A stretch of DNA of 46,313 nucleotides, taken from positions 1-46,313 of the forward strand of contig CAZWBO010000002.1 in the NCBI GenBank assembly GCA_964632375.1, given 5' to 3'. The notes under the pieces are model-generated. The model saw only the letters and a list, made by a program, of their open reading frames with translations. It had not been told where the DNA came from and ran no database searches. The position numbers and the translations under genes are program-made. Below, one piece after another: positions 1 through 46,313 of this stretch (the first letter of the stretch is position 1; each line of letters opens with the position of its first letter). Origin of the DNA: an uncultured Candidatus Peribacteria bacterium (GTDB taxonomy: Bacteria > Patescibacteriota > Gracilibacteria > Peribacterales > Peribacteraceae).

Positions 1-23
1 TTCAATTGCTCGATAATGAGAAT

Positions 24-88
24 GGGTGGACGGGGGAAGGTGCCCCGCGGAGCCCGCAGGCGGAGTGGGGCGGATGGGGCCCCTTACA
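24..88. repeat. GC-rich palindromic repeat element, copy A (just 3' of the pcrA stop)
   Basis: The 18-nt block CGGGGGAAGGTGCCCCGC (31-48) is identical to 15459-15476 inside dinB. Two further modules are shared: GCAGGCGG(AG)TGGGGC (56-71) and GGATGGGGCCCC (72-83). The arms GGAAGGTGCCCC (35-46) and GGGGCCCCTTAC (76-87) form an imperfect inverted repeat. Confidence 0.55.
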
Positions 89-137
89 ACATCGTGAGCG
101 GCGCTGCTTAGACAAACTCAGCACGAGACTCGCACAT

Positions 138-2612
138 TTAGAGCATGGTGAGCGGCGCGATGCTCAGCGCGAACGTCTTCGTCTGCCCGTCGTCGAAGCG
201 GATGGTGACGATGTCGCCGCGCTTGCCCGTCACGCTTCCTTTGCCGAAGGTGGGGTGCGACACGCGCGTGCCCTCGCCGAAGGCGTCTTGGTTCACGTCG
301 TCGTCGGTGGGGAAATCCTGGTTGAACTCCATGTCGATCTTCGGCGCTCCCGCTTGGCGGAACGGTTCCAATCTTCCTCCGCCGCTGCCAAACCGCACTT
401 GTCCGGCCTTCACGTGGCCGCTCTCCGACGCCCAGGCGAATGCGCTCAGCAGTTCGTCGCTGCGCCGTTCGGTGACGCCGTCGGGCAGATCGTCTAGAAA
501 CCTGCTCCGCGCATTGGCCTGCGTGTTTCCCCACAGCATGCGCGTGCGGGCGAAGAGCAACACGAGCTTCGTCTTCGCGCGGGTCATACCCACGTACATC
601 AGCCGGCGCTCCTCCTCCAGCTGCGCTTTGTCGAAGGCACTGTTGGCGTGCGGGAAGATTCCTTCCTCGCATCCGCCGATCATCACGTGCTCGAACTCCA
701 GGCCTTTGCAGAGGTGCAGCGTCATGAGCGTGACAGCATCGTCTTTGATGTCGTTCAGCTTATCCACTTCCGACACGAGCGCGGCTTCCTCCAGAAAACT
801 GGTGAGCGATACTTCCGGCTCCAGGTTGTCGTACTTGTGCATCACCGAGAGGAGTTCTTGGACGTTATGCCAGCGCTCCTCGCCGTCTTCCGTGTCGTCG
901 CGCAGCCACTTCTCTATGTCGACGGTGTGCAGCAGGTTCTCGGTGAGCTCCGAGACCACGACCGTCTTCGCGCGCAGCTGGGCGCGCTCGATCAGCTCCA
1001 CGAAATTGCGCAGCCGGTCTTTGGTCGGCTCGTTCACGGTATCGATATGGTCGATATCCTTCAACGTGTTCCAGAGTGTCAACTTGTGCTCGCTCGCGTA
1101 CGCCTGCAGGTTGCCGATGGTCGTCTGCCCGATCTTCCGCGCCGGCACGTTGATGATGCGCAGCAGCGAGAGCGTGTCGTTAGGGTTGAGGATGGCGTAG
1201 AGGTACGCGAGCACGTCTTTCACCTCGCGGCGGGCGTAGAACTTCACGCCGCCGATGATGCGGTACGGGACGCCGGCGCGCATGCAGGCTTCTTCGAACA
1301 GGCGGCTTTGAGCATTCGTGCGGTAGAGGATCACTTGGTCGTTGAACCGCACGCCATCGCTGCGCAACTGCACCGCGCGCTTCACAGCTTCCTCCGATTC
1401 CTTCTTCTCGTCGCTCACCTCCTGCACCGTGATCATCGGGCCGTCTTTGCGGCTGGTCCACATTTCTTTCTCGGGCCGGTTCGGGTTCGCGGCGATGACG
1501 GCGTTGCTGGCCGTGAGGATCGGCTGCGCCGAGCGGTAGTTCTGCTCCAGCTTGATGCGCCGGGCGTCCGGGTACTCGTTCTCGAACTCCATGATGTTGC
1601 GGATGTCTGCCCCGCGGAAGGCGTAGATCGACTGATCCGGATCGCCGATCACGCACAGGTTGCGGTACTTCTGCGCGAGCAGCGAGATGATGAGGTACTG
1701 GCTGTGGTTCGTGTCTTGGTACTCGTCGACGTGCAGGTACCGCCACGTCTCCTGGTAGCGGTCGAGCACCTCCGGCACTTCGCGGAACAGGCGCACCGTC
1801 TCGAGGATCAGATCGTCGAAATCGAGCGCGTTCGCTTCGAATAGCGCCTTCTGGTACCGCCCGTACGCGATGATGATCTGCTGCATGCGCGCGGTGGTGG
1901 CCTGCTTCATCGCCTCCTGCGGGTTGAGGGCCTCGCATTTGAATCGTCCGACGTTGCCGAGCGCCGCGCGCGGCTTGATGTCCTTCTCGTCGACGTGCAT
2001 CTCTCTCAGAATCTGCTTCATCAGTTTCTCCTGGTCGTCGGCGTCGTAGATGACGAAGTTGCGGTTGCGCCCCAGCCGCTCGATGTCGCGCCGCAGAATG
2101 CGCGCGCAGACGGAGTGGAACGTGCCCATCACGGGGAGACGGGCGGGATCGGATTCCGGACGCCGGATTCCGGACGCCGCTCCGTTGGCGCCAGGTCCGG
2201 ATCCATCGACGATGTGCAGCATGTTCTTGATGCGCTCCTTCATTTCGGTTGCCGCCTTGTTCGTGAAAGTGACGGCCAGAATCTGCCACGGCGGAACGCC
2301 CTGCTGCATCATGTACGCGATGCGGTGCGTGAGCGCTTTCGTCTTGCCGGATCCCGCGCCGGCGAGGATCAATGCCGGCCCATGGATGTTCTCCACCGCC
2401 TGCCGCTGCGGCTCGTTGAGGCTATCGAAAATAGGGTCGTGAGTCACCGGGGGAGTGTACCGGATGTGGACATTGCTGTGAGTGATTTTTGCGGATTTTA
2501 TGACACTTCCCACACCCCGGGAAGAGAGAGTAAGGCATGGCGCATCTCCTCCATTCTGTCTACAGCGATGTGATCTATGTGGACGTGTATCAGAGGTTGA
2601 GATTGATTCCAA
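138..2612 (-). CDS. pcrA: ATP-dependent DNA helicase, UvrD/PcrA family
   Basis: 824-aa ORF with SF1 helicase motifs: AGAGSGKTKALTHR (Walker A), VDEYQDTN (motif II), GDPDQSIYAFRGA, LEQNYRS, MTLHLCKGLEFEHV and YVGMTRAKTKL. It also has the PcrA-type C-terminal tail GTRVSHPTFGKGSV. The first ~48 aa look non-conserved and overlap ORF 2498-2812, so the true start is uncertain. Confidence 0.93.
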   Translation of the reverse strand: MESISTSDTRPHRSHRCRQNGGDAPCLTLSSRGVGSVIKSAKITHSNVHIRYTPPVTHDPIFDSLNEPQRQAVENIHGPALILAGAGSGKTKALTHRIAYMMQQGVPPWQILAVTFTNKAATEMKERIKNMLHIVDGSGPGANGAASGIRRPESDPARLPVMGTFHSVCARILRRDIERLGRNRNFVIYDADDQEKLMKQILREMHVDEKDIKPRAALGNVGRFKCEALNPQEAMKQATTARMQQIIIAYGRYQKALFEANALDFDDLILETVRLFREVPEVLDRYQETWRYLHVDEYQDTNHSQYLIISLLAQKYRNLCVIGDPDQSIYAFRGADIRNIMEFENEYPDARRIKLEQNYRSAQPILTASNAVIAANPNRPEKEMWTSRKDGPMITVQEVSDEKKESEEAVKRAVQLRSDGVRFNDQVILYRTNAQSRLFEEACMRAGVPYRIIGGVKFYARREVKDVLAYLYAILNPNDTLSLLRIINVPARKIGQTTIGNLQAYASEHKLTLWNTLKDIDHIDTVNEPTKDRLRNFVELIERAQLRAKTVVVSELTENLLHTVDIEKWLRDDTEDGEERWHNVQELLSVMHKYDNLEPEVSLTSFLEEAALVSEVDKLNDIKDDAVTLMTLHLCKGLEFEHVMIGGCEEGIFPHANSAFDKAQLEEERRLMYVGMTRAKTKLVLLFARTRMLWGNTQANARSRFLDDLPDGVTERRSDELLSAFAWASESGHVKAGQVRFGSGGGRLEPFRQAGAPKIDMEFNQDFPTDDDVNQDAFGEGTRVSHPTFGKGSVTGKRGDIVTIRFDDGQTKTFALSIAPLTML

Positions 2613-4591: not shown

Positions 4592-4635
4592 AGCGTTCGG
4601 ATGCTAGCGGTTGGTGAACGGATGTTCACTTGCGA

Positions 4636-4719
4636 GTTTGTAGTTTGTAGTTTGTAGTCGGTAGTCGGCAGTCGGCAGTCGGCAGTCGGCAGTCGGCAGT
4701 CGGCAGTCGGCAGTCGGCG
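4636..4719. repeat. 12-unit heptamer tandem array (3x GTTTGTA, 1x GTCGGTA, 7x GTCGGCA, 1x GTCGGCG)
   Basis: Direct reading shows a perfect 7-nt period over 84 nt. The array is immediately followed by TATAAT at 4720-4725. Confidence 0.9.
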
Positions 4720-4740
4720 TATAATATTGCCCCTCTTCTA

Positions 4741-4770
4741 CAGACTAAAGACTACCAACTACCGACTAAT
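4741..4770. repeat. inverted partial copy of the 4636-4719 heptamer array
   Basis: CAGACTAAAGACTACCAACTACCGACTAAT is the reverse complement of GTCGGTA/GTTGGTA/GTCTTTA-type heptamers. CTACCGACTA can pair with TAGTCGGTAG in the array. Confidence 0.7.
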
Positions 4771-4812: not shown

Positions 4813-4900
4813 AACGCTCCGTCCGCGCTTCATTCGACGATATCGTCCCTGAGGCCCGGCGCAAATCTTTTTTGCCTGATTCCTTTTCCCGTCTCGCCGT

Positions 4901-5170: not shown

Positions 5171-5210
5171 AGAAGTTCCGATCCTGGATGTTCGTTTTCC
5201 ATTTCTCGGA

Positions 5211-5248
5211 GAAGCAGTGAGCGGACAGCGATAAGCGAGCTGCTTTTT
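5211..5248 (+). terminator. rpsO intrinsic terminator with heptamer-repeat loop
   Basis: Stem GAAGCAG (5211-5217) pairs with CTGCTT (5240-5245), followed by a T-run. The 22-nt loop is made of xxAGCGx heptamers (TGAGCGG ACAGCGA TAAGCGA). Confidence 0.55.
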
Positions 5249-5256
5249 CCTAGAAT

Positions 5257-9374: not shown

Positions 9375-9429
9375 CGGTCGTGCAGTGTGTGGATTCTTGC
9401 CGGCCTTGGAAAGGATTGTAACTTGATAT

Positions 9430-9741
9430 TTATTTCTCAGGTTTCGTCGTACTACTTTTTACGATGGTGTCGCTTGCTGCAGCCGGCGGTGCAGCGGATT
9501 TCTCCGCATCAGCCGCCCGCGCCGTTTCGGACGGTGGGGATTGCCTCGTTGATGCAACAGACGCACTCGCATCGGTCTTGTAAAACCCCGATCCCTTGAA
9601 CACGATGGATGGCGGGCTGATCAACTTCGTCACTTTTTTGCCCTTGCAGCTGGGGCACGGAGGCTTCGTTTTGCTGCCGAAGGGAAGCGACTCTTCGAAT
9701 GTATGGCCGCAGGGGTCGCACCGGAAATCGAAGGTGGGCAT
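9430..9741 (-). CDS. FmdB-family zinc-ribbon protein
   Basis: 103 aa. The N-terminus MPTFDFRCDPCGHTFE...CPSCKG carries the CxxC...CxxC signature, followed by a low-complexity Ala/Ser/Pro tail. Confidence 0.8.
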   Translation of the reverse strand: MPTFDFRCDPCGHTFEESLPFGSKTKPPCPSCKGKKVTKLISPPSIVFKGSGFYKTDASASVASTRQSPPSETARAADAEKSAAPPAAASDTIVKSSTTKPEK

Positions 9742-9763
9742 AGGGGGCGGAGTGTAGCAGAGC

Positions 9764-10132
9764 TTACGCGGCTTTTCTGTGTATGTGATCCACTCCGGCG
9801 GCTTCTTCGATCAGATCCTGACCGGCGGCGCCCATAATGCCAATTCCTGTCGTGATCCGCGTGACGATGCCGGCATCGCTCCAAAATACTGTTTCGAGCG
9901 AGCGTCGCGTGCGTGCCATGTGGCCGACCAGTGGCGGCACGTCCTCTGTCGTCCCGTCGATTGTGCGTGCGAGTTTGTCGAAGAGGAGATCAGGTCCCTC
10001 AAGAAGAACACTCGACACACCCGCAAGGTTCTTGAGCGGATCACCGCGATAATCGTCGCCCGCTCGATTGCGCCACTCATGGAGCGTCGATTTGTACGCC
10101 ATCAGCCGATGTTCGCGAGAGAAAAATTGCAT
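9764..10132 (-). CDS. hypothetical protein
   Basis: 122-aa ORF with GC-rich third positions. No motif recognised. Confidence 0.45.
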   Translation of the reverse strand: MQFFSREHRLMAYKSTLHEWRNRAGDDYRGDPLKNLAGVSSVLLEGPDLLFDKLARTIDGTTEDVPPLVGHMARTRRSLETVFWSDAGIVTRITTGIGIMGAAGQDLIEEAAGVDHIHRKAA

Positions 10133-10180
10133 AACGATAGATTCATCCTACTGTCCACCGACGGAAATGCACAGAAAAAC

Positions 10181-10290
10181 TTGCATTTTGTGTGACAACT
10201 AAGTATAACTCAGGCGCTTTGCGCGCAAGCGCAGCTCCGCTCTTTCTATTCTCTTGAAAAATGACCGCCTTCAACGGCGGTTATTTTTTT
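10181..10290 (+). promoter_or_regulatory. promoter plus ~75-nt transcript ending in an intrinsic terminator (candidate sRNA or attenuator leader)
   Basis: TTGCAT (10181-10186), a 17-nt spacer, then TATAAC (10204-10209). This is followed by hairpin GCGCTT-tgcgcgc-AAGCGC. The terminator is ACCGCC-ttcaac-GGCGGT (10264-10281) followed by TTATTTTTTT. Confidence 0.5.
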
Positions 10291-10361
10291 GTCTGCGCTC
10301 TTCTTCTTACATTCATGTTCTCTCCTCTCTCCTGCTACTATCACTTCGTTTCCCTCCTTCC

Positions 10362-10766
10362 ATGCGCAACCGACTCAAGACCGTCTTCCCGCACCCCTGG
10401 CTGCATTACGAGCTCAACGCGCGTCAGCGGCAGTGGGTGCTGATCCTCTTGAGCCTCGCGTTCAGCATCTTCGTCTTTCTGGTGCGGATGACGACCGGCA
10501 CGCCGTTCGATCTGTTCCTCTGGGGTGGGTCCATGATCTTCATGGCGATCTTCTGTCCGCCGTCGCTCAGCTCGACGCAGAAGGTCTGCGGCAACTGGCT
10601 CGACACGGTGGGGGATGGCACGTGGTTCTCTATTCACATCCTCAGCAACGCTCTCTTCTACTCCCTGATCCTGATCATCGCCATTTTCCTCGTGCGATTG
10701 GTAAACCAGAGCGAGAAAGACGTGGAGGCGAGCACGCTGCTGGAGGGGGCGGATAAGGATGAGTAA
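10362..10766 (+). CDS. hypothetical membrane protein
   Basis: The ORF track gives 10254-10766. The ATG at 10362 (MRNRLKTVF...) precedes 3-4 hydrophobic helices. Confidence 0.55.
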   Translation: MRNRLKTVFPHPWLHYELNARQRQWVLILLSLAFSIFVFLVRMTTGTPFDLFLWGGSMIFMAIFCPPSLSSTQKVCGNWLDTVGDGTWFSIHILSNALFYSLILIIAIFLVRLVNQSEKDVEASTLLEGADKDE

Positions 10767-10769
10767 CGA

Positions 10770-11288
10770 TCATCTGATGAGAGGTCTGATATTTTTAATC
10801 GCTGAATTGCAGATATCGAGAACTGGTGCGGCAACACTCATCGCAGCTTGAATGTGCACCGGGAAGCCGAATACAAGCAAACTCTCTCCTTCCTTTAAAA
10901 AAGGTGTCATTCTTGCGTCCGCATGGCTTGCGTCCTGTGACGCAAATTCATAGATGAAATCAACTTTGGTTATCTCTTTTTCGGCAACCTGCATTTTCTC
11001 ATTAAGAAATTCTTGAAGTGTACTTTGTTCTTGTCTGAGTGCTCCAGGAGTAGACACTACTAAGTACTTCTGCTGAGTGTATTTTTCTATGAAGTATAGG
11101 AGAAGGCCCCGATTTCTTTGTTTTTTGTCATCACAAATTAAGGATCGCAGATTTGAAAGAAGTCTCTTGTAAGCTGATAGATTTCCATTTTCAATTTCCA
11201 GATAGGCACTATGAGCTTCCTGGAAGTGTATCTCCAGGTCTTGGAATCTGCGGGTATCAGATCGTTTCTCATACATGGTTATTCTCAT
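10770..11288 (-). CDS. hypothetical protein (low-GC orphan)
   Basis: 172-aa ORF that is markedly more AT-rich than its neighbours. It is convergent with the previous gene, with stops 3 nt apart. No motif recognised. Confidence 0.5.
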   Translation of the reverse strand: MRITMYEKRSDTRRFQDLEIHFQEAHSAYLEIENGNLSAYKRLLSNLRSLICDDKKQRNRGLLLYFIEKYTQQKYLVVSTPGALRQEQSTLQEFLNEKMQVAEKEITKVDFIYEFASQDASHADARMTPFLKEGESLLVFGFPVHIQAAMSVAAPVLDICNSAIKNIRPLIR

Positions 11289-11318
11289 TCTACAGCTGCC
11301 GTGTTTACTGAAACAGGG

Positions 11319-11347
11319 TTGGAGTTACAAATAATGCTAGCTAATAT
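11319..11347 (+). promoter_or_regulatory. candidate valS promoter (would give a leaderless or near-leaderless mRNA)
   Basis: TTGGAG (11319-11324), a 17-nt spacer, then TAATAT (11342-11347). The valS ATG is at 11356, only 8 nt after the -10 box. Confidence 0.4.
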
Positions 11348-11355
11348 CCTTACAA

Positions 11356-14052: not shown

Positions 14053-14218
14053 TATTCTCAGAATCCGGATTCTTGCGTACCCTCAGCAATAGTTTTCACG
14101 TTTCCGGTGATAGTTGAGGATGAATCGTCGGTCCGCCTCTTCTCTCTGTCTTCTGGTTTCTCACTTCTGTCTTCTTCTCCCATCGAGGGCACGATTCTGC
14201 TGCGCAGACAAAAATCTT

Positions 14219-14935: not shown

Positions 14936-16196
14936 ATGATTGCTCATGTGGATGCGGATGCTTTTTTTGCATCAGTGCTGGTGCGGAAAGATCCCCGATT
15001 GCAAGGAAAGCCGCTGCTGGCTCTCGGTATGGGTGGAGGGTGTGTCATCGCCGCGAGCTACGAGGCGAAGGCCAAAGGAGTACGCACGGGCATGCGACTG
15101 ACTGACGCTTTGAGACTCTGTCCCGAGGCGCTGAAAGTGCATTCCGATTTCCGCGAAACAGGCCTCGCGTCGGATCAGATCGTTTCGATCATCGAGGAAC
15201 ACTGTCCGTTCATTGAGCAGTTCTCCATCGATGAGTGGTTTCTGGATCTCACGAGCCTGGTCGGCGGCGTGCCGGGGGATCTGACGGCATGGGCGACGCA
15301 TCTGCGACAGGAGATTCTAAAGCGCACTGGTCTCTCTGTGTCGGCGGGAATCGGCGCATCGAAGCTGTTGGCGAAGATGGCGTCGGAGTACCGCAAGCCT
15401 GGCGGTGTTACAGTTGTTTTGAATGATTCCTCCTTCCCCGGCAGGCAGGCGGTGGGGCCGGGGGAAGGTGCCCCGCAGGGCGGAAGGGGCCCTCCTCCGA
15501 GAAACCTTCCTCCGCGACCGCCCCGCCGCCGCCATCCCGGGCATCGGTCCGCGTCGGCTCGTGCACGTGGAGCGATTGGGATTAAAAACAGCGTGGGATA
15601 TCGCCATGGCGAATAGTGCCGTCCTCAAGCAGTACTTCGGGCAGAACGGCGTGGAGATGCAGCGTGAACTCTTGGGTGAACGCTTGTCGCCGGTGGCGCG
15701 CTCGTCGGCGTCGCCGAAGTCGGTCTCGCGGGCGCGGAGCTTTCCGCCATTGCGCGATCGTGCGGTGCTGTGGGCGCATGCGTTGCGACATATGGAGTAC
15801 ATCGTGCTCAAGATGCGCCGCCAGGATCTCGCGTGCCGAGGAGCGTCTCTCTGGCTGCGCGACGACCGCTACGGGTACGAGAGCTCGCACGTGTCGCTTC
15901 CGCAGCCGTTCGATACCGAAGATCACCTGCGCCCGTACGTGGAGCGCTGCTTCCGGCACCTGTACCGGCAGGGATACGCCTACACCCAAGTGGGTCTGTC
16001 GCTGTGGAACCTGTGCCCGCGAGGTGGACAACAGTTCTCGCTGTTCGAGCATCCTCGCGTGCTTCTGGAGCGCGAAGCGCTTCAGAAATCTCTGGATACT
16101 GTGCACGAGCGTTTCGGGCGCGATGCCGTTACCCGAGCGTCGGCACTAAGGGTGAAGAGTGGAACGAAGAAAGATGTGCCGTGGTGGGAGATGTAG
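14936..16196 (+). pseudogene. dinB: DNA polymerase IV (Y-family, DinB) with interrupted reading frame
   Basis: The N-terminal half is in ORF 14936-15616 (MIAHVDADAFFASV, SIDEWFLDL, SAGIGASKLLAKMASEYRKPGG). The C-terminal half is in ORF 15423-16196, in the +1 frame (ETFLRDRPAAAIPGIGPRRL...). The switch lies inside a ~70-nt GC-rich palindromic insert. This could be a true pseudogene, a 1-nt assembly error or recoding. Confidence 0.8.
15428..15497. repeat. GC-rich palindromic repeat element, copy B (inside dinB)
   Basis: CCTTCCCCGGC (15433-15443) pairs with GCCGGGGGAAGG (15458-15469). The 18-nt block 15459-15476 is identical to 31-48. The insert is flanked by TCCTCC at 15428-15433 and 15493-15498. 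Confidence 0.65.
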
Positions 16197-17339: not shown

Positions 17340-17472
17340 GAAGATTCCAAGACTGCAAGACTTCAAGATTGCAAATCCTCCTACACCGTCATGGTGAGGC
17401 GCGAGCCGCAGCGAGCCTCGAGCCATTGGCGTTTAGTTTGGCTTATTGCAGTCTTGCAGTCTTGGGATCTTC
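17340..17472. repeat. 133-nt TIR-bounded octamer-repeat element (CAAGACTG family)
   Basis: The left end GAAGATTCCAAGACTGCAAGAC (17340-17361) and right end GTCTTGCAGTCTTGGGATCTTC (17451-17472) are inverted repeats with one mismatch. The interior block TTTGGCTTATTGCAGTC is shared with 23790-23901. Confidence 0.8.
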
Positions 17473-19090: not shown

Positions 19091-19135
19091 GAGTCTTCCT
19101 CTGGAAGAACGCTCCTCAAGACTCAAGATTCAACC
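19091..19135. repeat. CAAGACTC-family hairpin
   Basis: GAGTCTT (19091-19097) pairs with AAGACTC (19118-19124), with an inner hairpin CTTCC/GGAAG. It is followed by AAGATTCAA. Confidence 0.5.
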
Positions 19136-22037: not shown

Positions 22038-22049
22038 GGGGTGAGGTTT

Positions 22050-26460: not shown

Positions 26461-26462
26461 CC

Positions 26463-27737: not shown

Positions 27738-27740
27738 GGG

Positions 27741-27775
27741 GAGAATTGAGAATGGAAAATTGAAAATGGAGAATT
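27741..27775. repeat. AT-rich heptamer array, left inverted repeat of the four-helix-bundle cassette
   Basis: GAGAATTGAGAATGGAAAATTGAAAATGGAGAATT. The 16-nt block ATTGAGAATGGAAAAT is identical to the reverse complement of part of 28155-28185. Confidence 0.8.
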
Positions 27776-28127
27776 ACAAGGTGGAACGGGACGTTTTGAT
27801 GATCGCGGTCAGTATGTTGATGATAGCATGGAGATCAGTGCGTAAAGCATCTGTGCTGGCTTCCGCAGTGATTTGCGCGTCCTTGAGGAGACGAAGCCAG
27901 TAATCAGTTTCATGAGATTCTTTGAGGGCGATCGAAAGTTTGGAGATGAAATCCTTCTTACTTTGCGCCTGAAGAGCCTCTTCGACATTCGCTCCGATGC
28001 TTGTTCCCGACTTCAGAATCTGCTGACTCATGACAAACTCCTTTTCCTGAGCAAGTTTTTTAGCAAATTTCACGATGCTCAGAGCAAACGCGTACGTTTT
28101 TTCCTGAATGACGTTCGGCTTCTTCAT
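27774..28127 (-). CDS. four-helix-bundle protein (23S rRNA intervening-sequence protein family, Avd-like)
   Basis: 117 aa with the family pattern ...YAFALSIVKFAKKL...ILKSGTSIGANVEEA...KDFISKLSIALKESHETDYWLRLL. The gene is lower in GC. Confidence 0.85.
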   Translation of the reverse strand: MKKPNVIQEKTYAFALSIVKFAKKLAQEKEFVMSQQILKSGTSIGANVEEALQAQSKKDFISKLSIALKESHETDYWLRLLKDAQITAEASTDALRTDLHAIINILTAIIKTSRSTL

Positions 28128-28154
28128 CTGCTTTACTTATAATGCAAAATAAAA

Positions 28155-28185
28155 TCTTCAATTCTCCATTTTCCATTCTCAATTT
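28155..28185. repeat. AT-rich heptamer array, right inverted repeat of the four-helix-bundle cassette
   Basis: TCTTCAATTCTCCATTTTCCATTCTCAATTT is the reverse complement of AAATTGAGAATGGAAAATGGAGAATTGAAGA. It abuts the secF stop. Confidence 0.8.
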
Positions 28186-29113
28186 ACTTCTTCTTCCTCC
28201 AGTACATCAGTATCGGCGTGGCCACGAAGAACGACGAGTACGTTCCGATGATGATGCCGAAGATGAGCGTGAGGATGAACCACTTCACGCTCTGGGGGCC
28301 GAAGAAGAGGAGCGAGAACAGCGTGAGGAGCGTGCAGAAAGTCGTGTTGAGCGTGCGGTTGAGCGTCTGGCGCAAGCTTGCCGCAGCGAGCGTCACGAAA
28401 TCTTGGTTGCTGCGTTCGACGGTGAGGTTGTGGCGGATACGGTCGAAGATGATGATCGTGTCGTTGACCGAGTAGCCGAGGATGGTGAGCAGCGCCGTCA
28501 TGAACAGCGTGTCGACTTGGAACGTGGTGTAGTGGCTGAGGATGGTGAAGATGCCCGACGTGATGAGCAGGTCGTGGAGCAAGGCCAGCACCGCGGCCAC
28601 GCCGAAGCGCATGGGGCTGTACTTGCGCGGTACGTTGCGGAACGCGAAAGCGATGTAGAGGATGATGGCGATGGAAGCGACGGCCAAGGCCATGAACGCG
28701 TGGTTCTTCAGCGTGGCGCCGACCGTGGGCCCGATGGTGGTGAACTGGCGCTCATCGAACTTGCCGAGTTGCTTCTGCAGATCCTGCGTGAACAGCACGT
28801 GCTGCTCGTTGGTGATGGGCGGCGTGCGGATGAAGTAGGTATCGGCCGTCGTCTTCGAGACTTGCGCGTGCGCAAGCGATTCCTTCAGTGCCTTCGCATC
28901 GGCTGTGTTGCCATGCGGCACAGGATCAAATCCCGTGATCGCTGTATCGAGGTCGGCTTTTACTTTGCCTTTTGGCAGCTGGATTTCCATCAGCGTTCCG
29001 CCTGTGAACTCCATGCTCATGCGGGGGCCGGGGTAGATCAGCAACACGGCGCTCGCGAGAAGGAGCACCGCAGAGACAAAGCCGAAGACACGCGTGAGGC
29101 GGATGTACGACAT
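28184..29113 (-). CDS. secF: protein translocase subunit SecF
   Basis: 309 aa with the SecF N-terminus (MEFTGGTLMEIQL) and a six-TM SecD/SecF C-terminal core (LTILGYSVNDTIIIFDRIR). Confidence 0.9.
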   Translation of the reverse strand: MSYIRLTRVFGFVSAVLLLASAVLLIYPGPRMSMEFTGGTLMEIQLPKGKVKADLDTAITGFDPVPHGNTADAKALKESLAHAQVSKTTADTYFIRTPPITNEQHVLFTQDLQKQLGKFDERQFTTIGPTVGATLKNHAFMALAVASIAIILYIAFAFRNVPRKYSPMRFGVAAVLALLHDLLITSGIFTILSHYTTFQVDTLFMTALLTILGYSVNDTIIIFDRIRHNLTVERSNQDFVTLAAASLRQTLNRTLNTTFCTLLTLFSLLFFGPQSVKWFILTLIFGIIIGTYSSFFVATPILMYWRKKK

Positions 29114-31320: not shown

Positions 31321-31365
31321 GAGTCTTGATGGGGAAGATTGCAATCTTGCAGTCTTGCATTCTTT
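31321..31365. repeat. CAAGACTG/TTGCAATC-family octamer array
   Basis: GAGTCTTGATGGGGAAGATTGCAATCTTGCAGTCTTGCATTC, abutting the stop of the TPR gene. Confidence 0.7.
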
Positions 31366-32678: not shown

Positions 32679-32819
32679 GAGTACAGGGTTGGGCGAAAGG
32701 GGGCTACTGGAGAAGTTGGGGGACAGGGGAGGATTCCATCATCAAGTAAGCGAAGAGCGAATAGCGGTTCGCTGCAAGCAAGAACGGAGATGCTCCCCGC
32801 TTACCGCTCGTTTTCTCCC

Positions 32820-34435: not shown

Positions 34436-34532
34436 GGGAATTGAGAATAGAGAATTGAGAATTGAGAATTGAGAATTGAGAGGTGTCTTGTTGCTGATCA
34501 TTTTCCATTTTCCTTTCTCAATTTTCAATTTC
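34436..34532. repeat. AT-rich heptamer hairpin element (GAGAATT family)
   Basis: The left arm GGGAATTGAGAATAGAGAATTGAGAATTGAGAATTGAGAATTGAGAGG has about 6 units of GAATTGA. The right arm CATTTTCCATTTTCCTTTCTCAATTTTCAATTTC is its imperfect inverted complement. Confidence 0.85.
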
Positions 34533-37025: not shown

Positions 37026-37056
37026 TTCTCAATTGTCAATTGTCAATTCTCAATTG
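37026..37056. repeat. AT-rich heptamer array (TCTCAAT orientation)
   Basis: TTCTCAATTGTCAATTGTCAATTCTCAATTG, 36 nt upstream of the lipoprotein ATG in sense orientation. Confidence 0.7.
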
Positions 37057-37091
37057 CGCTCACGATCGTGCTCTCCGGTATCCTACGATCC

Positions 37092-37664
37092 ATGCGTCGC
37101 TTCTCCTTTGCTTTGCTGACATCCTCGCTTTTTCTCGTTGCTTGCGCGAGCGCCGGCTCGAAAGCGACGGTCACATGCAAGGAGCAGTTTTGGAATGGAT
37201 CGGTGGGGCTGTGTCTGCCGACGGGGTGGAAGGTGGTGCCGCGCGAGACGCTCACCGAGCGCGGCTTGCCGCAGGAAGTCGTGACCGCGTTCCAGCGCGA
37301 GCAGAGCCAGGCGGGTCAGTCGCCGGTGCTGCTCATCACCAAGCAGGCGCTCACGCAGGATGTCGACCCGGCCGCGTACAGCGACGCGAGTATCCGCTCC
37401 ATCACCGACATGCCCGGCTATAAAGAGATCGACACACGCAACGTGACCATCGACAATCAGAAGGTGAAGATCCACATCTTCAGCGCGCAGCCAAATGCCG
37501 ATGAACCGGCGCGGCGGTTCTACCAGATGAGCACGTCGACGAAGGGCGCGGGTTACACGTACACGGCCCTTACACCACTGTCGGTCGATAAGACATTGGA
37601 TGCGGAAGTGATACTGATGATGGAGAATGCGACATTGAAGGAGGCTGCGGCTGTTGCGAAGTAG
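37092..37664 (+). CDS. putative lipoprotein
   Basis: The ATG at 37092 gives MRRFSFALLTSSLFLVACASAGS, a signal peptide with lipobox LVAC. 190 aa. Confidence 0.7.
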   Translation: MRRFSFALLTSSLFLVACASAGSKATVTCKEQFWNGSVGLCLPTGWKVVPRETLTERGLPQEVVTAFQREQSQAGQSPVLLITKQALTQDVDPAAYSDASIRSITDMPGYKEIDTRNVTIDNQKVKIHIFSAQPNADEPARRFYQMSTSTKGAGYTYTALTPLSVDKTLDAEVILMMENATLKEAAAVAK

Positions 37665-37710
37665 CGAGAGAAGAGATACGAGTGCAAGACCGATTGAATA
37701 AAGAATCCTC

Positions 37711-37748
37711 GATTGCAATCTTGCAGCCTTGCAATCTTGCATTCTTCC
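37711..37748. repeat. TTGCAATC/TTGCAGCC octamer array
   Basis: GATTGCAATCTTGCAGCCTTGCAATCTTGCATTCTTCC (period 8), directly adjacent to the 3' end of tRNA-Cys. Confidence 0.75.
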
Positions 37749-37751
37749 ACT

Positions 37752-37826: not shown

Positions 37827-37906
37827 AGATGAATGCCGCCGGAGTCTAGCGAATCGAGGCGGGGAATGCCACCGCGTCCGCGCCAACGCATGGCGCTCTC
37901 CTTCGG

Positions 37907-38305
37907 TTATTGTCTCTCCTCGCGGTACACGGCATCGATCGCGATCCCACCACGTACATTGAATTTTACCGTCACTTCCACCGAGAGCGGCTGGACGAAT
38001 TTCATCAGATCCTTACCGATGTCGATGGCCAGGTGCTCGTGGAACACGCCTTCGTTGCGGTAACTTTCTAAGTAGAGTTTCATCGATTTCGATTCCACTA
38101 CGTACTTGTCCGGCCGGTAGACGATCTCGATCTGCGCAAAATCGGGCTGCTTGGTGAGCGGGCAGAAGCACGTGAACTCCGTGCAGTGGAGGCGCACTTC
38201 CATCTGGCCCGGCGCGTGGTTGGGGAACACTTCCAGCGTGCGCGATGCCTCGGCTTTGGTGCCGAGTTTGGTGAGGGAGGCGAGATCTTGGGGGGTGGTG
38301 GACAT
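37907..38305 (-). CDS. queF: NADPH-dependent 7-cyano-7-deazaguanine (preQ0) reductase, type I
   Basis: The ATG at 38305 gives MSTTPQDL.... The QueF motif ESKSMKLYLESYRN and the catalytic-Cys region EFTCFCPLTKQPDFA are present. Confidence 0.92.
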   Translation of the reverse strand: MSTTPQDLASLTKLGTKAEASRTLEVFPNHAPGQMEVRLHCTEFTCFCPLTKQPDFAQIEIVYRPDKYVVESKSMKLYLESYRNEGVFHEHLAIDIGKDLMKFVQPLSVEVTVKFNVRGGIAIDAVYREERQ

Positions 38306-38344
38306 GGAAATTGAGGATGGAAAATTGAACATTGAGAATTATTC
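38305..38344. repeat. AT-rich heptamer array immediately upstream of queF
   Basis: GGAAATTGAGGATGGAAAATTGAACATTGAGAATTATTCC. In sense orientation it reads AATTCTCAATGTTCAATTTTCCATCCTCAATTTCC-ATG. Confidence 0.7.
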
Positions 38345-38418
38345 CCAGGAGAGCGCCATGCTTGGCGCGGTGCCATGGTGAGCGGGAATGCTTCGCTGAA
38401 GACAGGATAGCATCAACA

Positions 38419-39096: not shown

Positions 39097-39147
39097 CGGG
39101 AGGGGGAGAAGTGACGGTATGGTAGAGAAGGGATAGAGGGGAGAAAA

Positions 39148-39188
39148 GGCAGGAACGGCAGAATGCAGAAGGCAAGAAGGGCAGAACG
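39148..39188. repeat. GGCAGAA-family octamer array in the yhhQ/purP divergent spacer
   Basis: GGCAGGAACGGCAGAATGCAGAAGGCAAGAAGGGCAGAACG, with period ~8 (xxGCAGAA). Confidence 0.65.
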
Positions 39189-39298
39189 TTGGGATTGATC
39201 GAGCATGGATACATTTGCAGGGGATTTGCCGTGCACACCGAAAGATCGATGTGGACATTGTCTCTCGCCACTTCCTCTGGTACCGTTCCACAAATCCC

Positions 39299-40372
39299 AT
39301 GACGAACCTCGCGTCCATTCCGGCCTCCAAAAACCCGAAGGACTTCGTGATCGCGACGATGGGAAGCCACAGCGCGCTGCAGATTTTGAAAGGCGCGCGC
39401 GACGAGGGCATACGCAACGTGGTGATCTGCAAGAAGGGCAAGGAGAGGCCGTACCAGAGCTACGGCGTAGCCGACGAGATCATCCTCGTCGACGATTGGT
39501 CGGAGTGGAATGACGAGCTCGAAGCCAAGCTGGTCGAGCGCAACGCGATCATCATCCCGCACGGGTCGTTCGTGGCGTACTTGGGGCACGAGCGCATTAA
39601 GACACTCAAGACGATGTACTACGGTACGAAGGAGATTCTGGAGTGGGAATCGAACCGCACGATGGAGCGCGAGTGGCTGCTGAATGCCAAGCTCCAGCTG
39701 CCGCGCGTGTTCCAGAAACCGGAAGACATCGACCGTCCGGTGATCGTGAAGTTCCACGGCGCGGGCGGCGGTTTCGGCTACTTCGTGGCGAAATCGGCCG
39801 AGCAGTTCTACGAGGTGAAGAACCGCAAGTACCCCGACGAGCACGATTTCGTCATCCAGGAGTACATCGTGGGCGTGCCCGTGTACATCCACTACTTCTA
39901 CTCGCCCATCACTGGCGAGCTGGAAATCATGAGCCTCGACAAGCGTTACGAGTCGAATGCCGACAGCATCGGGCGCATCCGCGCCGAGGACCAGTTGGCC
40001 GCCAACATCCACACGAGCTACACCATCGTCGGGAACATCCCCATCGTCATCCGCGAATCGATGCTGCCGGAGCTGTTCGAGATGGGCGAGAACGTGGTGA
40101 GGGAGAGCCGCAAGCTGTGCGGCCCGTCGGACTCAGGACAAACCAATAAGGGTCTCTTCGGTTCCTTCTGCCTCGAGACGATCGTCACGCGCAAATTGCA
40201 GATAGTGGTGTTCGAGATCAGCGCGCGCATCGTCGCCGGCACCAACCCGTTCATCGAAGGGTCGCCCTACACGGCGCTCAAGTACGACGTGCCGATGAGC
40301 ACCGGTCGACGCATCGCCAGAGACATCAAGCAGGCGATTGAGGCGGGGAGGTTGGCGGAAATCTTGGGGTGA
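39299..40372 (+). CDS. purP: archaeal-type FAICAR synthetase (PurP family ATP-grasp)
   Basis: The ATG at 39299 gives 357 aa. It matches the Methanocaldococcus PurP pattern: IATMGSHSALQILKGARDEG...ICKKGKE...VADEIILVDDW...IIIPHGSFVAYLG...WESNR...PEDIDRPVIVKFHGAGGGFGYF...FYSPITGELEIMSLDKRYESN. Confidence 0.85.
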   Translation: MTNLASIPASKNPKDFVIATMGSHSALQILKGARDEGIRNVVICKKGKERPYQSYGVADEIILVDDWSEWNDELEAKLVERNAIIIPHGSFVAYLGHERIKTLKTMYYGTKEILEWESNRTMEREWLLNAKLQLPRVFQKPEDIDRPVIVKFHGAGGGFGYFVAKSAEQFYEVKNRKYPDEHDFVIQEYIVGVPVYIHYFYSPITGELEIMSLDKRYESNADSIGRIRAEDQLAANIHTSYTIVGNIPIVIRESMLPELFEMGENVVRESRKLCGPSDSGQTNKGLFGSFCLETIVTRKLQIVVFEISARIVAGTNPFIEGSPYTALKYDVPMSTGRRIARDIKQAIEAGRLAEILG

Positions 40373-40374
40373 GA

Positions 40375-40460
40375 AATCAGAACACAGAGGGCAGAAAACA
40401 GAGGGCAGAAGTCAGGGGGTTGTGTGTATTTGATTTCTGCCTTCTGACTTCTGCTTTTTT
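40375..40460 (+). terminator. GGCAGAA-family repeat hairpin acting as the purP terminator
   Basis: The direct repeat ACAGAGGGCAGAA occurs twice. The stem GCAGAAGTCAG (40405-40415)/CTGACTTCTGC (40444-40454) is followed by TTTTTT. Confidence 0.6.
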
Positions 40461-40477
40461 CGATTATCCTGTCTCCC

Positions 40478-41614
40478 ATGGACCCCACCTCCCTCCTTTC
40501 CGGTTACGATCAGAAGAATCTTACCGTCGGCGTGCTCGGCGGGCACAGCGCGCTGGATGTCTCGCGCGGGGCGAAGCAGCACGGGTTTCGTACGCTCACG
40601 GTGGCGCGGAAGGGAAGAGAGAAGACGTATACCGAGCACTACAAGACGCGCGGCGAGCGCGGGTGCATCGACGAGACGATCGTGGTCGACGATTTTCACG
40701 ACATCCTGCGGCCCGAGCATCAGGCATCACTGCGCAGCAAGAACACGCTCTTCGTGCACAACCGGTACTTCTGGGTGTACTTCGACGATTTCTCGAAGGT
40801 AGAGACGGGGTTTCAGGTTCCCATCTTCGGCTCGCGCACGCTGCTCAAGCTCGAGGAGCGCGATCAGCCGTACAATCAGTATCACCTCTTGCAGGATGCC
40901 GGCATCCGCACGCCGCAGGTCTTCAGCGATCCCGACCAGATCAACGGACGGCTGTGCATCGTGAAGGCGGCGGAGGCGGCGCGCAGTTACGAGCGCGCGT
41001 TCTTCCTCGTCACCAACAAAACAGAATGGCTCACCGAGGGATCGCGTCTCGAGATCGCGGGCAGGATCGCCAAAGGCTGGGAGAACGCGCTCATCGAGGA
41101 GTTCATCGTGGGGGCGCACGTGAATTTCAACTTCTTCTACTCGCCGCTCACGGGTGAGCTGGAGCTGCTGGGCACCGACATGCGGCGGCAGACGAACCTC
41201 GACGGCTTCCTACGCATGCCGGCGGATCAGCAGATGAAGGTGCTGCAGTACATCGACGTGAAGATGATCGAGACCGGCCACGTGGCGGTGACGGTGAAGG
41301 AATCGATTCTGGAAAAGGCGTACGAGATGGGCTGGAAGTTCGTGCGCGCCACGCAGAAATTGCCGAAGTCGCTGGATCCGACGGGCAAGGGGATCATCGG
41401 GCCGTTCGCGCTGCAGGGCGCGGTGGTGGCGGAGGAAGGGAAAGAAGACATCGTCATCTTCGACGTCAGTTTCCGCATCCCCGGCTCGCCGGGCTTGGCG
41501 GCCACGCCGTACATGCACTACCTGTACGGCAAACCCATGAGCGTGGGCGAGCGCGTGGGCATGGAAATACGGAACGCGGTGGAGAGCAATTGCCTCGAAA
41601 AAATTATTACGTGA
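40478..41614 (+). CDS. PurP-family ATP-grasp paralog
   Basis: 378 aa sharing the family blocks GGHSALDVSRGAKQHG, ARKGREK, IVVDDF and FYSPLTGELELLGTDMRRQTN with the upstream gene, but otherwise divergent. Confidence 0.75.
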   Translation: MDPTSLLSGYDQKNLTVGVLGGHSALDVSRGAKQHGFRTLTVARKGREKTYTEHYKTRGERGCIDETIVVDDFHDILRPEHQASLRSKNTLFVHNRYFWVYFDDFSKVETGFQVPIFGSRTLLKLEERDQPYNQYHLLQDAGIRTPQVFSDPDQINGRLCIVKAAEAARSYERAFFLVTNKTEWLTEGSRLEIAGRIAKGWENALIEEFIVGAHVNFNFFYSPLTGELELLGTDMRRQTNLDGFLRMPADQQMKVLQYIDVKMIETGHVAVTVKESILEKAYEMGWKFVRATQKLPKSLDPTGKGIIGPFALQGAVVAEEGKEDIVIFDVSFRIPGSPGLAATPYMHYLYGKPMSVGERVGMEIRNAVESNCLEKIIT

Positions 41615-41645: not shown

Positions 41646-41654
41646 GTAGCGGTT

Positions 41655-42621: not shown

Positions 42622-43734
42622 ATGCGCATCCTCTTCACGCGTTTCCCGCTGGAATCCGCCATGGGCGGCGCCGAAATCCAGACACTGAGCCTGATGGAAG
42701 GATTGCGAACGCGCGGCCACGATGTGGCATTTTTGGGGAGTTGCCCCGTGCTGTTGGCCGAATGTCGCAAGAGGAATTTCACTGCGACGGAGCTGCAGAT
42801 CGGCCCGCCGCCGGTGACGGCGTGGCATGCCACTACTTTTCTCTGGCGGCAACGATCGATGAAAAATAAATTACTCACGGCGCTTACCGCTCGCCGCTCG
42901 CCGCTGAGTGCTCTTTGCATGCTCAGCTTGAGTGAGAAGCTCCTTGTAACTGAGTATCTGCATCGCCAGAAGAAGACCGTGCTGTGGATCGAGCACGACC
43001 GCGTGGGGAACTGGCTGCGCAGAAACCCCTGGCTGCCTCGGCTCCGCCGATTGAGCCGATGGGCGACGACGGTGACGGTGTCGGAGATGAGTAGGCGTCT
43101 CTATCGGGAGTTGCGATGGGAAGACAAAAGCACGGTGGCGATTCCGAATGGTATTGATCTGACGAGATTTCAGAAGGCAGAAGGGAGAAGGCAGAAGTCG
43201 GCAGTAGTGCTGAGTATTGGTTGTGTAGCGCGATTAACGCGTGATAAAGGCGTAGATGTGCTGATCAAAGCACTGCGCGATGTGCCGAAAATACAGTTGA
43301 CGATTGTGGGCCAGGGACGCGAGGAGGCTGTGTTGCAAGCGCTGATTGCCTCGCACGGGCTGGGCGATCGCGTTCGGATCCTCCCTGCCATGGACGATCT
43401 CGGTGCATTCTACCGTTCGCTCGATCTGCTCGTGCTGCCCGCGCGCGACCATGATCCCTTCGGCCTCGTGGCGGCGGAGGCGATGAGCGTGGGCGTGCCG
43501 GTGATCGTGACAGACCAGTGCGGCATCGCGAGTTACTTGCACGACGGCATCGACGCGCTCGTTGTCGAGGCCGGATCGCCCGACAAGCTGGCCCAAGCGA
43601 TCAAGCAGCTCGCTGATCCCCGGCGGCGTGAACGCATGGGAGCAGCGGGCCACCGTACCGCGCACGAGCAGTTTTCGCTGGCAGCGATGATTGATCGATA
43701 CGAGAAACTTATGCAAAGCGGTTACCAACGATGA
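42622..43734 (+). CDS. glycosyltransferase family 4
   Basis: The ATG at 42622 gives MRILFTRFPLESAMGGAEIQ.... The GT4 C-terminal domain has LTRDKGVDVLIKAL and FGLVAAEAMSVGVPVIVTD. It contains an in-frame GGCAGAA-type repeat at 43171-43209. Confidence 0.85.
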   Translation: MRILFTRFPLESAMGGAEIQTLSLMEGLRTRGHDVAFLGSCPVLLAECRKRNFTATELQIGPPPVTAWHATTFLWRQRSMKNKLLTALTARRSPLSALCMLSLSEKLLVTEYLHRQKKTVLWIEHDRVGNWLRRNPWLPRLRRLSRWATTVTVSEMSRRLYRELRWEDKSTVAIPNGIDLTRFQKAEGRRQKSAVVLSIGCVARLTRDKGVDVLIKALRDVPKIQLTIVGQGREEAVLQALIASHGLGDRVRILPAMDDLGAFYRSLDLLVLPARDHDPFGLVAAEAMSVGVPVIVTDQCGIASYLHDGIDALVVEAGSPDKLAQAIKQLADPRRRERMGAAGHRTAHEQFSLAAMIDRYEKLMQSGYQR

Positions 43735-46271: not shown

Positions 46272-46273
46272 TC

Positions 46274-46305
46274 GAGTGAGTAGTGCGTAGTGGGTAGTGG
46301 GTAGC
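46274..46305. repeat. heptamer array (TAGTGxG) at the window end
   Basis: GAGTGAG TAGTGCG TAGTGGG TAGTGGG TAGC, directly 3' of the amidase gene. It may be truncated by the window edge. Confidence 0.7.
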
Positions 46306-46313
46306 TTCAGCCC

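Follow-up and report, generated by a model that had tools for sequence, protein, structure and literature searches.

Results

Short-period arrays in a Peribacteria chromosome

Here, we examined a 46,313-nt stretch of DNA from an uncultured Candidatus Peribacteria bacterium (assembly GCA_964632375.1, contig CAZWBO010000002.1), which we call the window. Its intergenic spacers carry tandem arrays of 7- and 8-nt units, and one inverted pair of these arrays encloses a gene for a 23S rRNA intervening sequence protein (IVP, or S23p). The window is a piece of a Candidatus Peribacteria chromosome (Peregrinibacteria, Candidate Phyla Radiation [CPR]), as placed by trigger factor, and has a G+C content of 59%. 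It carries the housekeeping genes uvrD, rpsO-pnp, valS, lexA-dinB, an LCP gene, rplJL, and dtd-relA. Further genes are tig, secDF, queF, two purP genes, a GT4 glycosyltransferase gene, an amidase/SpoIID gene, and tRNA-Cys. The tRNA was the sole Rfam match in the window at gathering score, and no rRNA was found; permissive Rfam scans returned only hairpin-like matches far below threshold.

The nearest relative is a sibling metagenome-assembled genome (MAG; GCA_964618035.1) with 91% amino-acid identity. The next relatives are at 71% and 63%, and many are at approximately 50%. Other genomes used for comparisons include a second NCBI assembly of the same species (L108, GCA_020049755.1) and a distant GC-rich Peribacterium with 50% identity in trigger factor (L107). 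Labels of the form L107 are our own locus numbers.

In the output of Tandem Repeats Finder, the period was 7 in 22 rows and 8 in 9 rows (2-9 copies). The program recovered every array site listed in a preliminary description of the window, and direct reading confirmed these sites (Table 1). The spacer excess proposed there held against composition-matched shuffles. After merging, the window contained 27 period-7/8 arrays, against a mean of 1.4 and a maximum of 4 in 50 dinucleotide-preserving, segment-wise shuffles. Twenty-two of the 27 lie in non-coding DNA (19% of the window), where the shuffles predict 0.2. The claim that most spacers are occupied is just true, as 19 of the 32 spacers of at least 20 nt hold at least one array; array DNA amounts to approximately 1.0 kb of 9.3 kb of spacer DNA.

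Multiple unit families, numbered i to v, had been described, and the same families recur in the window and sibling. Some site details require revision. The family iii arrays at 5218 and 32745 are present, but very degenerate. The array at 19091 is real; however, its unit is the 7-mer AAGACTC and not the octamer of the family to which it had been assigned. As described, arrays overlap or abut the final codons of three genes (relA, LCP, and TPR), and one array lies in frame within the GT4 gene (43171-43197).

The arrays are not assembly artefacts because L108 reproduces two of them and the sibling MAG (91% identity) contains orthologous ones. L108 matched the window over 1634 nt, including both family ii arrays, with a single nucleotide difference. 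Unit numbers were identical between the window and L108, the only second assembly of the same species that was compared.

Hairpin architecture and polarity

An inverted-repeat search of the window showed that most arrays pair up as arms of long, imperfect hairpins, and fold energies agreed, in line with the expectation that inverted pairs would form long hairpins. Inverted-pair hairpins were found at 4655-4768, 17340-17472, 23789-23902, 34446-34530, and 40374-40457, and an inverted pair with a 377-nt loop at 27744-28184. Fold energies lay between -20 and -65 kcal/mol, and the z-scores between -3 and -10.

The most frequent element is a hairpin of approximately 95-105 nt with arms of 2-4 octamers, which read CAAGAyTG in one arm and CArTCTTG in its counterpart. 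The octamer unit contains the palindrome TTGCAA, and the center of the hairpin is conserved and partly unpaired (CCAAAC(C/A)AAAnCCCAAGAGTTCTyCCCTTGGGnTTTCyT). About 25 copies are present in the window and 113 kb of the sibling, and longer versions have other repeated modules in their loops. A module of approximately 45 nt, GGCTCGAGGCTCGCTGCGGCTCGCGCCTCACCATGACGG, recurs in octamer-hairpin loops at L102 470-590 (twice in tandem), L058, L060, and L091; a second module, GTCACCCTGAGGAGCG...CTCGAAGGG, is likewise found repeatedly in such loops. The design of the octamer element is also seen in the hairpins of families ii (GAGAATT), iv (AGTCGGC/AGTGAGT), and v (CAGAAGG).

The modular combinations noted previously are illustrated by nested composites at 22040-22215 and 26290-26462. 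These are two copies, 4 kb apart, of a 160-nt composite in which AAGACTC-type arms surround an AGCGGAT array along with a conserved 60-nt core and an array of octamers. The copies are 86% identical overall and 92% identical in the core. The core is non-repetitive (AGCATCTTGCTGAGGATTGCTTCAAGCCTGAGTGCCATCTCTCAT; 22100-22160 and 26333-26392) and may be a small RNA; the sibling loci that were sampled do not contain it.

Across families i, ii, iv, and v, about 30 of the 33 paired arrays in the window and sibling have the purine-rich arm 5' and the G-poor pyrimidine arm 3'. Since such a hairpin reads alike on both strands, the sense strand of the adjacent gene has the purine arm after a stop codon and the G-poor arm before a start codon.

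An IVP cassette between secF and tig

The family ii arrays at 27741-27775 and 28153-28185 constitute one inverted pair enclosing the IVP ORF (27774-28127, - strand). The preliminary description had not recognized the arrays at 27741 and 28155 as the two arms of one stem, and had also missed the constant polarity and the dispersed element of approximately 100 nt. The 5' arm (28153-28185) is purine-rich, with GAGAATG/GAAAATG units. The G-free 3' arm (27741-27775) begins at the IVP stop codon and extends to 4 nt before the tig ATG. The two arms, 32 nt in length, are 84% complementary. The minimum free energy structure predicted for the 465-nt sense RNA has 30 arm-arm pairs (duplex, -33 kcal/mol). 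In this predicted fold, the pairing places the ORF in a closed loop, and the tig leader is covered to 4 nt before the AUG.

The IVP product is a 117-residue four-helix bundle. It matches PF05635, "23S rRNA intervening sequence protein" (Pfam, 4.4e-25), TIGR02436 (2.6e-29), and PDB 2RLD (4e-29), and matches Avd weakly. The gene is absent from the secF-tig spacer in four relatives.

In Coxiella, the 23S rRNA intervening sequence (IVS) has a 28-bp terminal stem and is excised by RNase III, and the S23p ORF is preceded by two or three GACAGAT heptamers, the number of which varies between strains (PMC4990558). The S23p family is homopentameric (PMC4990558), and PDB 2RLD has five chains. The window cassette resembles the 23S IVS of Coxiella and Leptospira (PMC4990558) in that an IVP ORF lies in the loop of a stem of terminal inverted repeats of approximately 28-33 bp, with heptamers beside the ORF. 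It differs in its location between secF and tig rather than in an rRNA helix; excision by RNase III has been shown for Coxiella. Furthermore, both arms of the window cassette are heptamer arrays, and the 3' arm is also the leader of the next gene. Of the features that define an IVS, the window cassette has the IVP ORF and the closing terminal inverted repeats, but not the insertion in a 23S or 16S rRNA helix. By this analogy, the family ii (GAGAATT) arrays form the stem of an IVS-like cassette, built on the plan of the 23S rRNA intervening sequences.

IVP loci across phyla

We surveyed 24 IVP loci from six phyla, comprising the window and 23 others. Inverted tandem-heptamer arms directly bracket the ORF at about 19 of them; 17 are clear (the window included), one (L135) is marginal, and one (L019) rests on inspection by eye and is unscored. 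These loci belong to Patescibacteria, Cyanobacteriota, Bacteroidota, Chloroflexota, and Bacillota. Two more loci, including the sole one from Spirochaetota, have arrays in direct orientation on both flanks, and the remaining three have no arrays or weak ones. Flank scores were 12.5-32.5, against shuffled maxima of 10-16.

The arm units vary: GACAATT in Peribacteraceae, GATAATT in Peregrinibacteria, CAAAATT in Aulosira, TTAGTGA in Bernardetia, and CAATTCG, TAATTCG, and GAGGTCG in Nostoc. Inverted arms were also found at loci of Euhalothece, Planktothrix, Gloeocapsa, Chitinophagaceae, Chlorohelix, and Monoglobus. The arms cluster in the length range of 29-35 nt, and the modal length is 33 nt (4.7 units). 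The 3' arm starts 0-4 nt after the IVP stop codon in 10 of 15 scored cassettes, and the cassettes usually lie between co-directional genes of one operon. A Nostoc plasmid served as a control (40 kb, 49 coding sequences): its two IVP genes scored 32.0 and 31.5, and the other 47 genes scored 12 or less.

ORF-less hairpins with the unit family of the IVP cassette are present on the Nostoc plasmid, and likewise in the window at 34438-34531. An IVP protein search of approximately 700 kb of array-rich loci from other phyla yielded one homologue; therefore, arrays need no nearby IVP gene. In the literature, we found no paper that generalizes the link between IVP genes and heptamers, and nothing on such a link apart from the note on the Coxiella IVS (PMC4990558).

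Several IVP cassettes are wedged in defence-type operons, namely, L124 (Monoglobus), L126 and L135 (Chlorohelix), L129 (Gloeocapsa), and L128 (Planktothrix). These operons contain HsdS/HsdR, a helicase/N6-methylase, or DUF1156/Swt1-HEPN.

Turnover among Peribacteria

The sibling has the unit families of the window; however, turnover of orthologous spacers is rapid. Conservation was seen for the hairpin upstream of dtd, which shows one compensatory change. The secF-tig spacer of the sibling has a hairpin of a different family, and the tig-relA spacer is entirely different in the two genomes. Beside tRNA-Cys, the one arm of the window corresponds to a complete two-armed hairpin in the sibling, in which two modules are nested. 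The array abutting the TPR gene has the opposite orientation in the sibling at the same site. Since one-armed sites in the window face fuller or inverted sites in the sibling, solitary arrays look like remnants of hairpins. Differences between the window and sibling, at the species level, are replacements and not clean one-unit steps.

In L107, 13 heptamer arrays were found in 21 kb, a density as high as that of the window, and their units are unrelated. As in the window, hairpins or arrays occupy the fn3-pfkB, hyp-TPR, rplJ-rplL, and rplL-downstream spacers. Not every spacer matches, and L107 has no secF-tig spacer. Relatives with 50-54% G+C (L002 and L106) have few arrays. Thus, at several spacers, position and architecture are kept while sequence is not, and the unit sequences are lineage-specific. 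Metagenome scans with the tig-start pattern and an octamer 27-mer gave no match.

Contacts with genes

The genes of the window have no Shine-Dalgarno (SD) sequence, and the 10-15 bases before the ATG are C/U-rich and G-poor, as in ..TCTCCCC ATG. Such start contexts, e.g. 4886-4900, 27738-27752, and 40463-40477, resemble the anti-SD strand. A -10-like TACACT recurs, sometimes only 7-20 nt from the ATG, which suggests short-leader or leaderless mRNAs.

Family ii arrays end 0-17 nt before the starts of rplL, tig, queF, and pfkB, in the G-free orientation. The rplJ-rplL spacer has 0-2% G and a folding energy of 0 in four Peribacteria, including those without clear periodicity. The arrays lie within tightly packed same-strand gene strings and, thus, must be transcribed. 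The spacers of secD-secF-IVP-tig are 32-56 nt, which implies the co-transcription of these genes.

The suggestion that some arrays serve as terminator stems or loops applies to two sites, 40374-40457 and 5205-5250. As in intrinsic terminators, a stem directly follows the stop codon and is followed by a T-run, which is TTTTTT at 40374-40457. The site at 40374-40457 folds better on the + strand (-39.9 kcal/mol) than on the - strand (-26.7 kcal/mol), and it is predicted to be an intrinsic terminator or attenuator between purP1 and purP2. In contrast, the other roughly 18 sites have no T-run, or have mismatch-rich stems of 25-40 bp, or are located upstream of genes or between divergent ones. A terminator scan showed no excess over shuffles (15 observed, 16.9 expected), with one match in an array, and a promoter scan revealed no meaningful enrichment in arrays. 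With a U-tract at only two of about 20 sites, the view that these arrays are not ordinary REP (repetitive extragenic palindromic) elements or terminators was sustained.

Relation to known repeats

Cyanobacteria have been known to carry intergenic heptamer repeats since 1990, and Bacteroidota, Beggiatoaceae, and Xanthomonas were added later. To our knowledge, neither a function nor an origin of these repeats has been established. IVP/S23p proteins, which are common, Avd-like, pentameric, and known mainly from rRNA intervening sequences, are equally unexplained.

Over-represented heptamers include the STRR sequences of Calothrix and Nostoc, as well as the units GGGAATC and GGGGATT of Xanthomonas and Nostoc, and inverted pairs occur among them (PMC4692102). 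The TAACTGA repeats of Beggiatoaceae, Cyanobacteria, and Bacteroidetes are intergenic and mixed with other heptamers. They mostly lie within a few bases of start codons that have no ribosome-binding site, occur in ribosomal-protein operons, and are patchy among relatives; binding of S1, Csp, or CsrA has been proposed (PMC4679880). The preliminary description could not assign the arrays to any described class. This is only partly right because they fit the STRR/LSSR class of heptamer repeats, which is already published (PMC4679880, PMC4692102), though unexplained. Units of that class span 5-11 nt, most often 7, with two to three copies or more; the window has tandem units in this range, a spacer excess, several families, and a patchy distribution among relatives.

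The likeness extends to 7-nt tandem units, the spacer bias, the mixture of several families per genome, the location of arrays just before SD-less starts (including those in ribosomal-protein operons), occasional inverted pairs, and patchiness. However, most arrays of the window are hairpin arms with a fixed purine-first polarity, and the unit of one family is 8 nt in length, based on the palindrome TTGCAA. The units are also unrelated to the published ones, and the host is a small-genome CPR bacterium. We found no report on repeats in Peribacteria, or on the octamer sequence, in the literature. The arrays of the window represent a new host lineage for, and a structural variant of, a known, but unexplained repeat class.

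Dispersed intergenic hairpins of approximately 100 nt, present in many copies and forming nests or mosaics, are also typical of REP/BIME and REPIN-RAYT systems and of miniature inverted-repeat transposable elements (MITEs) such as Correia, ERIC, and Nezha. The arrays of the window share with REPs a 3' UTR or intercistronic location, where REPs stabilize mRNA, and with RAYTs the arrangement of a protein gene flanked by its cognate repeats. In contrast to REPs and MITEs, the arms are short-period tandem arrays and not a unique palindrome, and unlike in REPIN-RAYT, the flanked protein is a small non-catalytic four-helix bundle. A CRISPR array was rejected because the 7-8-nt units run head to tail without spacers, whereas CRISPR repeats are 24-48 nt and alternate with unique spacers of comparable length. 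Riboswitches and known small RNAs were rejected on anatomy.

A scan for TTGCADTC x3, which covered one genome per species, identified more than 100 loci. Among the matches listed, about 20 were from the sibling and most others from Bacteroidales or other Bacteroidota, with a few from Acidobacteria, Planctomycetota, Chloroflexota, and others. These listed loci have 9 short-period arrays per 10 kb, of many unit families, and the arrays are mostly unpaired (25 of 396 with an inverted partner); among paired arrays in other phyla, 15 were purine-first and 6 pyrimidine-first. This octamer cannot be called special because, if arrays of 8-mers are common, any 8-mer might give similar counts. In Bacteroidales MAGs (L017, L023, L024, L026, L098, L101, and others), spacers contain trains of different 7-8-nt arrays placed end to end, e.g. 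GTCTTGCA units followed by ACGCCTTT or CTATTGC units. The units drift gradually along an array, and almost none has an inverted partner.

Discussion

The present results extend a known repeat class to a reduced CPR genome with little spare DNA, in which more than half of the spacers are occupied and polarity is fixed. High occupancy and fixed polarity in such a genome argue for transcript-level use or constraint. Our preferred interpretation, in which belief and doubt are evenly balanced, is that the arrays are lineage-specific members of the STRR/LSSR class, most of them long transcribed hairpins that act as RNA stems and leaders. The two arms would pair in polycistronic RNA to form stems of 25-40 bp. 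These stems may be RNase III processing sites, or may protect or stabilize 3' ends; a stem with a U-tract would be a terminator. The 3' pyrimidine arm, or a solitary G-poor array, would double as the unstructured leader of the next SD-less gene. We speculate that replication slippage grows and shrinks the arrays, that selection and hairpin-templated correction keep the arms complementary, and that decay leaves one-armed remnants.

Several observations weigh against a role as RNA stems and leaders. Nothing in it explains the 7-8-nt period. The composite elements have the opposite polarity. The hairpins at 4635-4768 and 23789-23902 lie in divergent promoter regions, where a role in polycistronic RNA does not apply. 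In an RNAalifold analysis of 13 octamer hairpins, the pairs were nearly invariant with almost no covariation, and the unpaired positions were also conserved; therefore, recent copying or a sequence-specific partner fits better than selection for pairing alone. Counts of G.U and A.C mismatches in stems (16 vs 11) did not significantly differ and gave no strand signal. Where one strand folds better, G/T skew of the replication strand is an equal explanation. In family ii hairpins that lack an ORF, the loops do not resemble the IVP gene, and, thus, there is no evidence that these hairpins are deletion derivatives of the cassette.

The strong rival, which we consider possible but clearly less probable, is that the arrays are selfish mobile elements, non-autonomous like MITEs or REPINs, copied to new spacers by an enzyme encoded elsewhere in the genome and kept only where harmless. 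Any apparent function would then be incidental. About 25 copies of the octamer element, with its conserved and partly unpaired center, at unrelated loci of two genomes point to copying, as do the extra modules nested in loops and the two composite copies 4 kb apart. Orthologous spacers differ by presence, absence, or replacement at only 91% amino-acid identity, and ORF-less hairpins share the replicon with an IVP cassette of the same unit family in the window and in Nostoc, similar to REPINs around RAYT. However, no RAYT (IS200/IS605-like Y1 transposase), other transposase, or integrase was found among the ORFs of the 46-kb window, and no insertion sequence. The ends are fuzzy and vary in unit number, and no direct repeats flanking the elements as target-site duplications were evident by eye. 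A filled and an empty site with clean borders was not found in the genomes compared. Moreover, the presence of arrays with unrelated sequences at several of the same spacers in L107 counts against mobility, and the constant polarity of the arms with respect to genes points to transcript-level selection. Mobility and a role as RNA stems partly overlap, as a mobile origin is compatible with the later use of the hairpins as stems.

We regard as attractive, but rather unlikely, the explanation that the arrays are multi-site platforms for a protein, with one unit per binding site, that tune downstream translation. Candidates for this protein are the homopentameric IVP, with five units per ring, and the single-stranded RNA binders ribosomal protein S1 and cold-shock-domain proteins. 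The specific bracketing of IVP genes by heptamer arrays is consistent with the former, together with the clustering of arm lengths around 4.7 units and the pentameric state of S23p (PMC4990558; five chains in PDB 2RLD). Regarding the latter, G-poor arrays abut SD-less starts, and a similar proposal was made for TAACTGA repeats (PMC4679880). However, unit sequences differ widely between cassettes and families, and a sequence-specific binder would have to co-vary with them. The window also has a single IVP gene for five or more array families, and array lengths in Peribacteria overall are broad.

A more specific proposal, which we offer as a long shot, is as follows: IVP/S23p would be the protein partner of heptamer hairpins, as RAYT is for REPINs, the pentamer would read five heptamers, and ORF-less arrays would be non-autonomous relatives. 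If so, the pentameric ring would set both the 7-nt period and the arm length of approximately 33 nt. Cassettes consisting of a five-unit heptamer arm, IVP, and a second, complementary arm would have colonized rRNA helices and intercistronic spacers in many phyla, and the ORF-less arrays of cyanobacteria, Bacteroidota, and Peribacteria would be their non-autonomous relatives. The window provides a testable link between two puzzles, heptamer repeats and IVP/S23p proteins, in which the plan of the rRNA IVS is transferred to mRNA. The IVS-like cassette and its recurrence across phyla are the part of the present study most worth following up.

Neutral by-products of replication slippage in the spacers of GC-rich Peribacteria, neither functional nor mobile, are already disfavored, and we consider this explanation improbable. 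Degenerate units, variable copy numbers, rapid turnover, and the rarity of arrays in lower-GC relatives are as expected from slippage. However, slippage alone does not give complementary arrays on either side of a loop, does not produce a constant purine-first polarity or identical elements of approximately 100 nt at many loci, and leaves the specific bracketing of IVP genes unexplained. An assembly or binning artefact is scarcely credible: assemblers may be misled by short repeats, and arrays are often found at the ends of sibling contigs, but two arrays were reproduced in L108, orthologous arrays are present in the MAG of a different species, and finished Nostoc plasmids have the same architecture.

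Other features of the window

Table 1. Arrays and array-containing elements of the window. Empty strand cells, no strand assigned; ΔG in kcal/mol.
Feature	Position	Strand	Description
Family iv hairpin	4635-4768		AGTTTGT x3.4 + AGTCGGC x9 as 5' arm; 3' arm CTACAGACTAAAGACTACCAACTACCGACTA (4738-4768); between divergent hyp419 and rpsO; ΔG -58/-52
rpsO intrinsic terminator	5205-5250	+	ΔG -20.1 on + strand, T-run; loop has three degenerate family iii units GAGCGGACAGCGATAAGCGAG
TCTGTCT array	14145-14175	+	Pyrimidine-rich; upstream of probable lexA start (~14276)
Octamer-armed hairpin	17340-17472		CAAGAyTG / CArTCTTG; LCP stop to hyp326 start; ΔG -65, z -5.9
Nested ~45-nt module	17385-17430		GGCTCGAGGCTCGCTGCGGCTCGCGCCTCACCATGACGG; in loop of hairpin 17340-17472
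AAGACTC-family array	19091-19133	-	HGSNAT stop to LCP start; sense strand T/pyrimidine-rich
Composite element, copy 1	22040-22215		Outer arms TTGAGTC/CAAGATTC; interior AGCGGAT array, 60-nt conserved core, TTGCAGTC array; just downstream of rplL terminator (22218-22240)
rplJ-rplL spacer leader	22663-22711	-	Quasi-heptamer CAATTTTC...; 0% G, unstructured; ends at rplL ATG
Octamer-armed hairpin, short type	23789-23902		Between rplJ promoter and dtd start; z -10; center CCAAACC..CCAAAAGATCGAATCTTGG, conserved
Composite element, copy 2	26290-26462		Fills convergent relA/tig spacer
IVP cassette	27738-28190	-	Family ii arms around IVP ORF
Solitary octamer array	31339-31364		TTGCAATC x3.2; abuts TPR stop
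Degenerate family iii hairpin	32735-32815	-	GAGCGGTAAGCGG.. / ..CCGCTATTCGCTCTTCGCTTAC; between hyp201b and TPR gene
Family ii hairpin without ORF	34438-34531		GAATTGA x6.3 / CATTTTC x4.7; fn3/Big stop to pfkB start
TCAATTG x4 array	37029-37056		At start of fn3/Big gene
Solitary octamer array	37713-37746		Adjoins 3' end of tRNA-Cys
Family ii array	38305-38335	-	Sense strand G-poor; ends at queF ATG
Family v array	39146-39186		AAGGCAG; divergent Vut1/purP1 region
Family v hairpin	40374-40457	+	CAGAGGG/CAGAAAA ... TTCTGCC, then TTTTTT; between purP1 and purP2
CAGAAGG x3.9 array	43171-43197	+	In frame; linker between two GT4 glycosyltransferase domains
AGTGGGT x4.3 array	46275-46304	+	Directly after amidase/SpoIID stop, at window end

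The dinB gene (IMS family) is split into two overlapping ORFs at 14936-15616 and 15423-16196 (+ strand), and its N-terminal domain and IMS_C are in different frames. A frameshift, a pseudogene, or an error in sequencing could account for the split. Two tandem archaeal-type purP paralogues (DUF1246/DUF1297, FAICAR synthetase) are present in this CPR bacterium at 39215-40372 and 40478-41614 (+ strand), and the family v terminator hairpin separates them. Two long stretches, 37033-37751 and 9375-11355, have no convincing gene, and the ORFs there have no Pfam match. Such gene-poor stretches are unusual for a compact CPR genome; the former contains two arrays.

The queF gene is bracketed by a near-perfect inverted repeat of 25 nt (CCGCGCCAAGCATGGCGCTCTCCT / AGGAGAGCGCCATGCGTTGGCGCGG; about 37876-37900 and 38350-38375), each copy of which is itself a small palindrome. 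This is a second gene-in-a-stem layout, and is unrelated to the heptamer arrays.

A leader of approximately 200 nt upstream of rplJ (~23463-23725, - strand) is conserved in sequence in four Peribacteria (GTCCGAAGACCGAGGGC...CTCGCTGGTCTCCCGG), with counterparts in L001, L106 (6354-6987), and L107 (16047-16308). It had no Rfam match even at E≤1. It is probably an autoregulatory RNA similar to the L10 leader. The long rplJ ORF call takes in this leader; the true start is near 23462, and the promoter is TTGACC-16-TACACT at 23752-23725.

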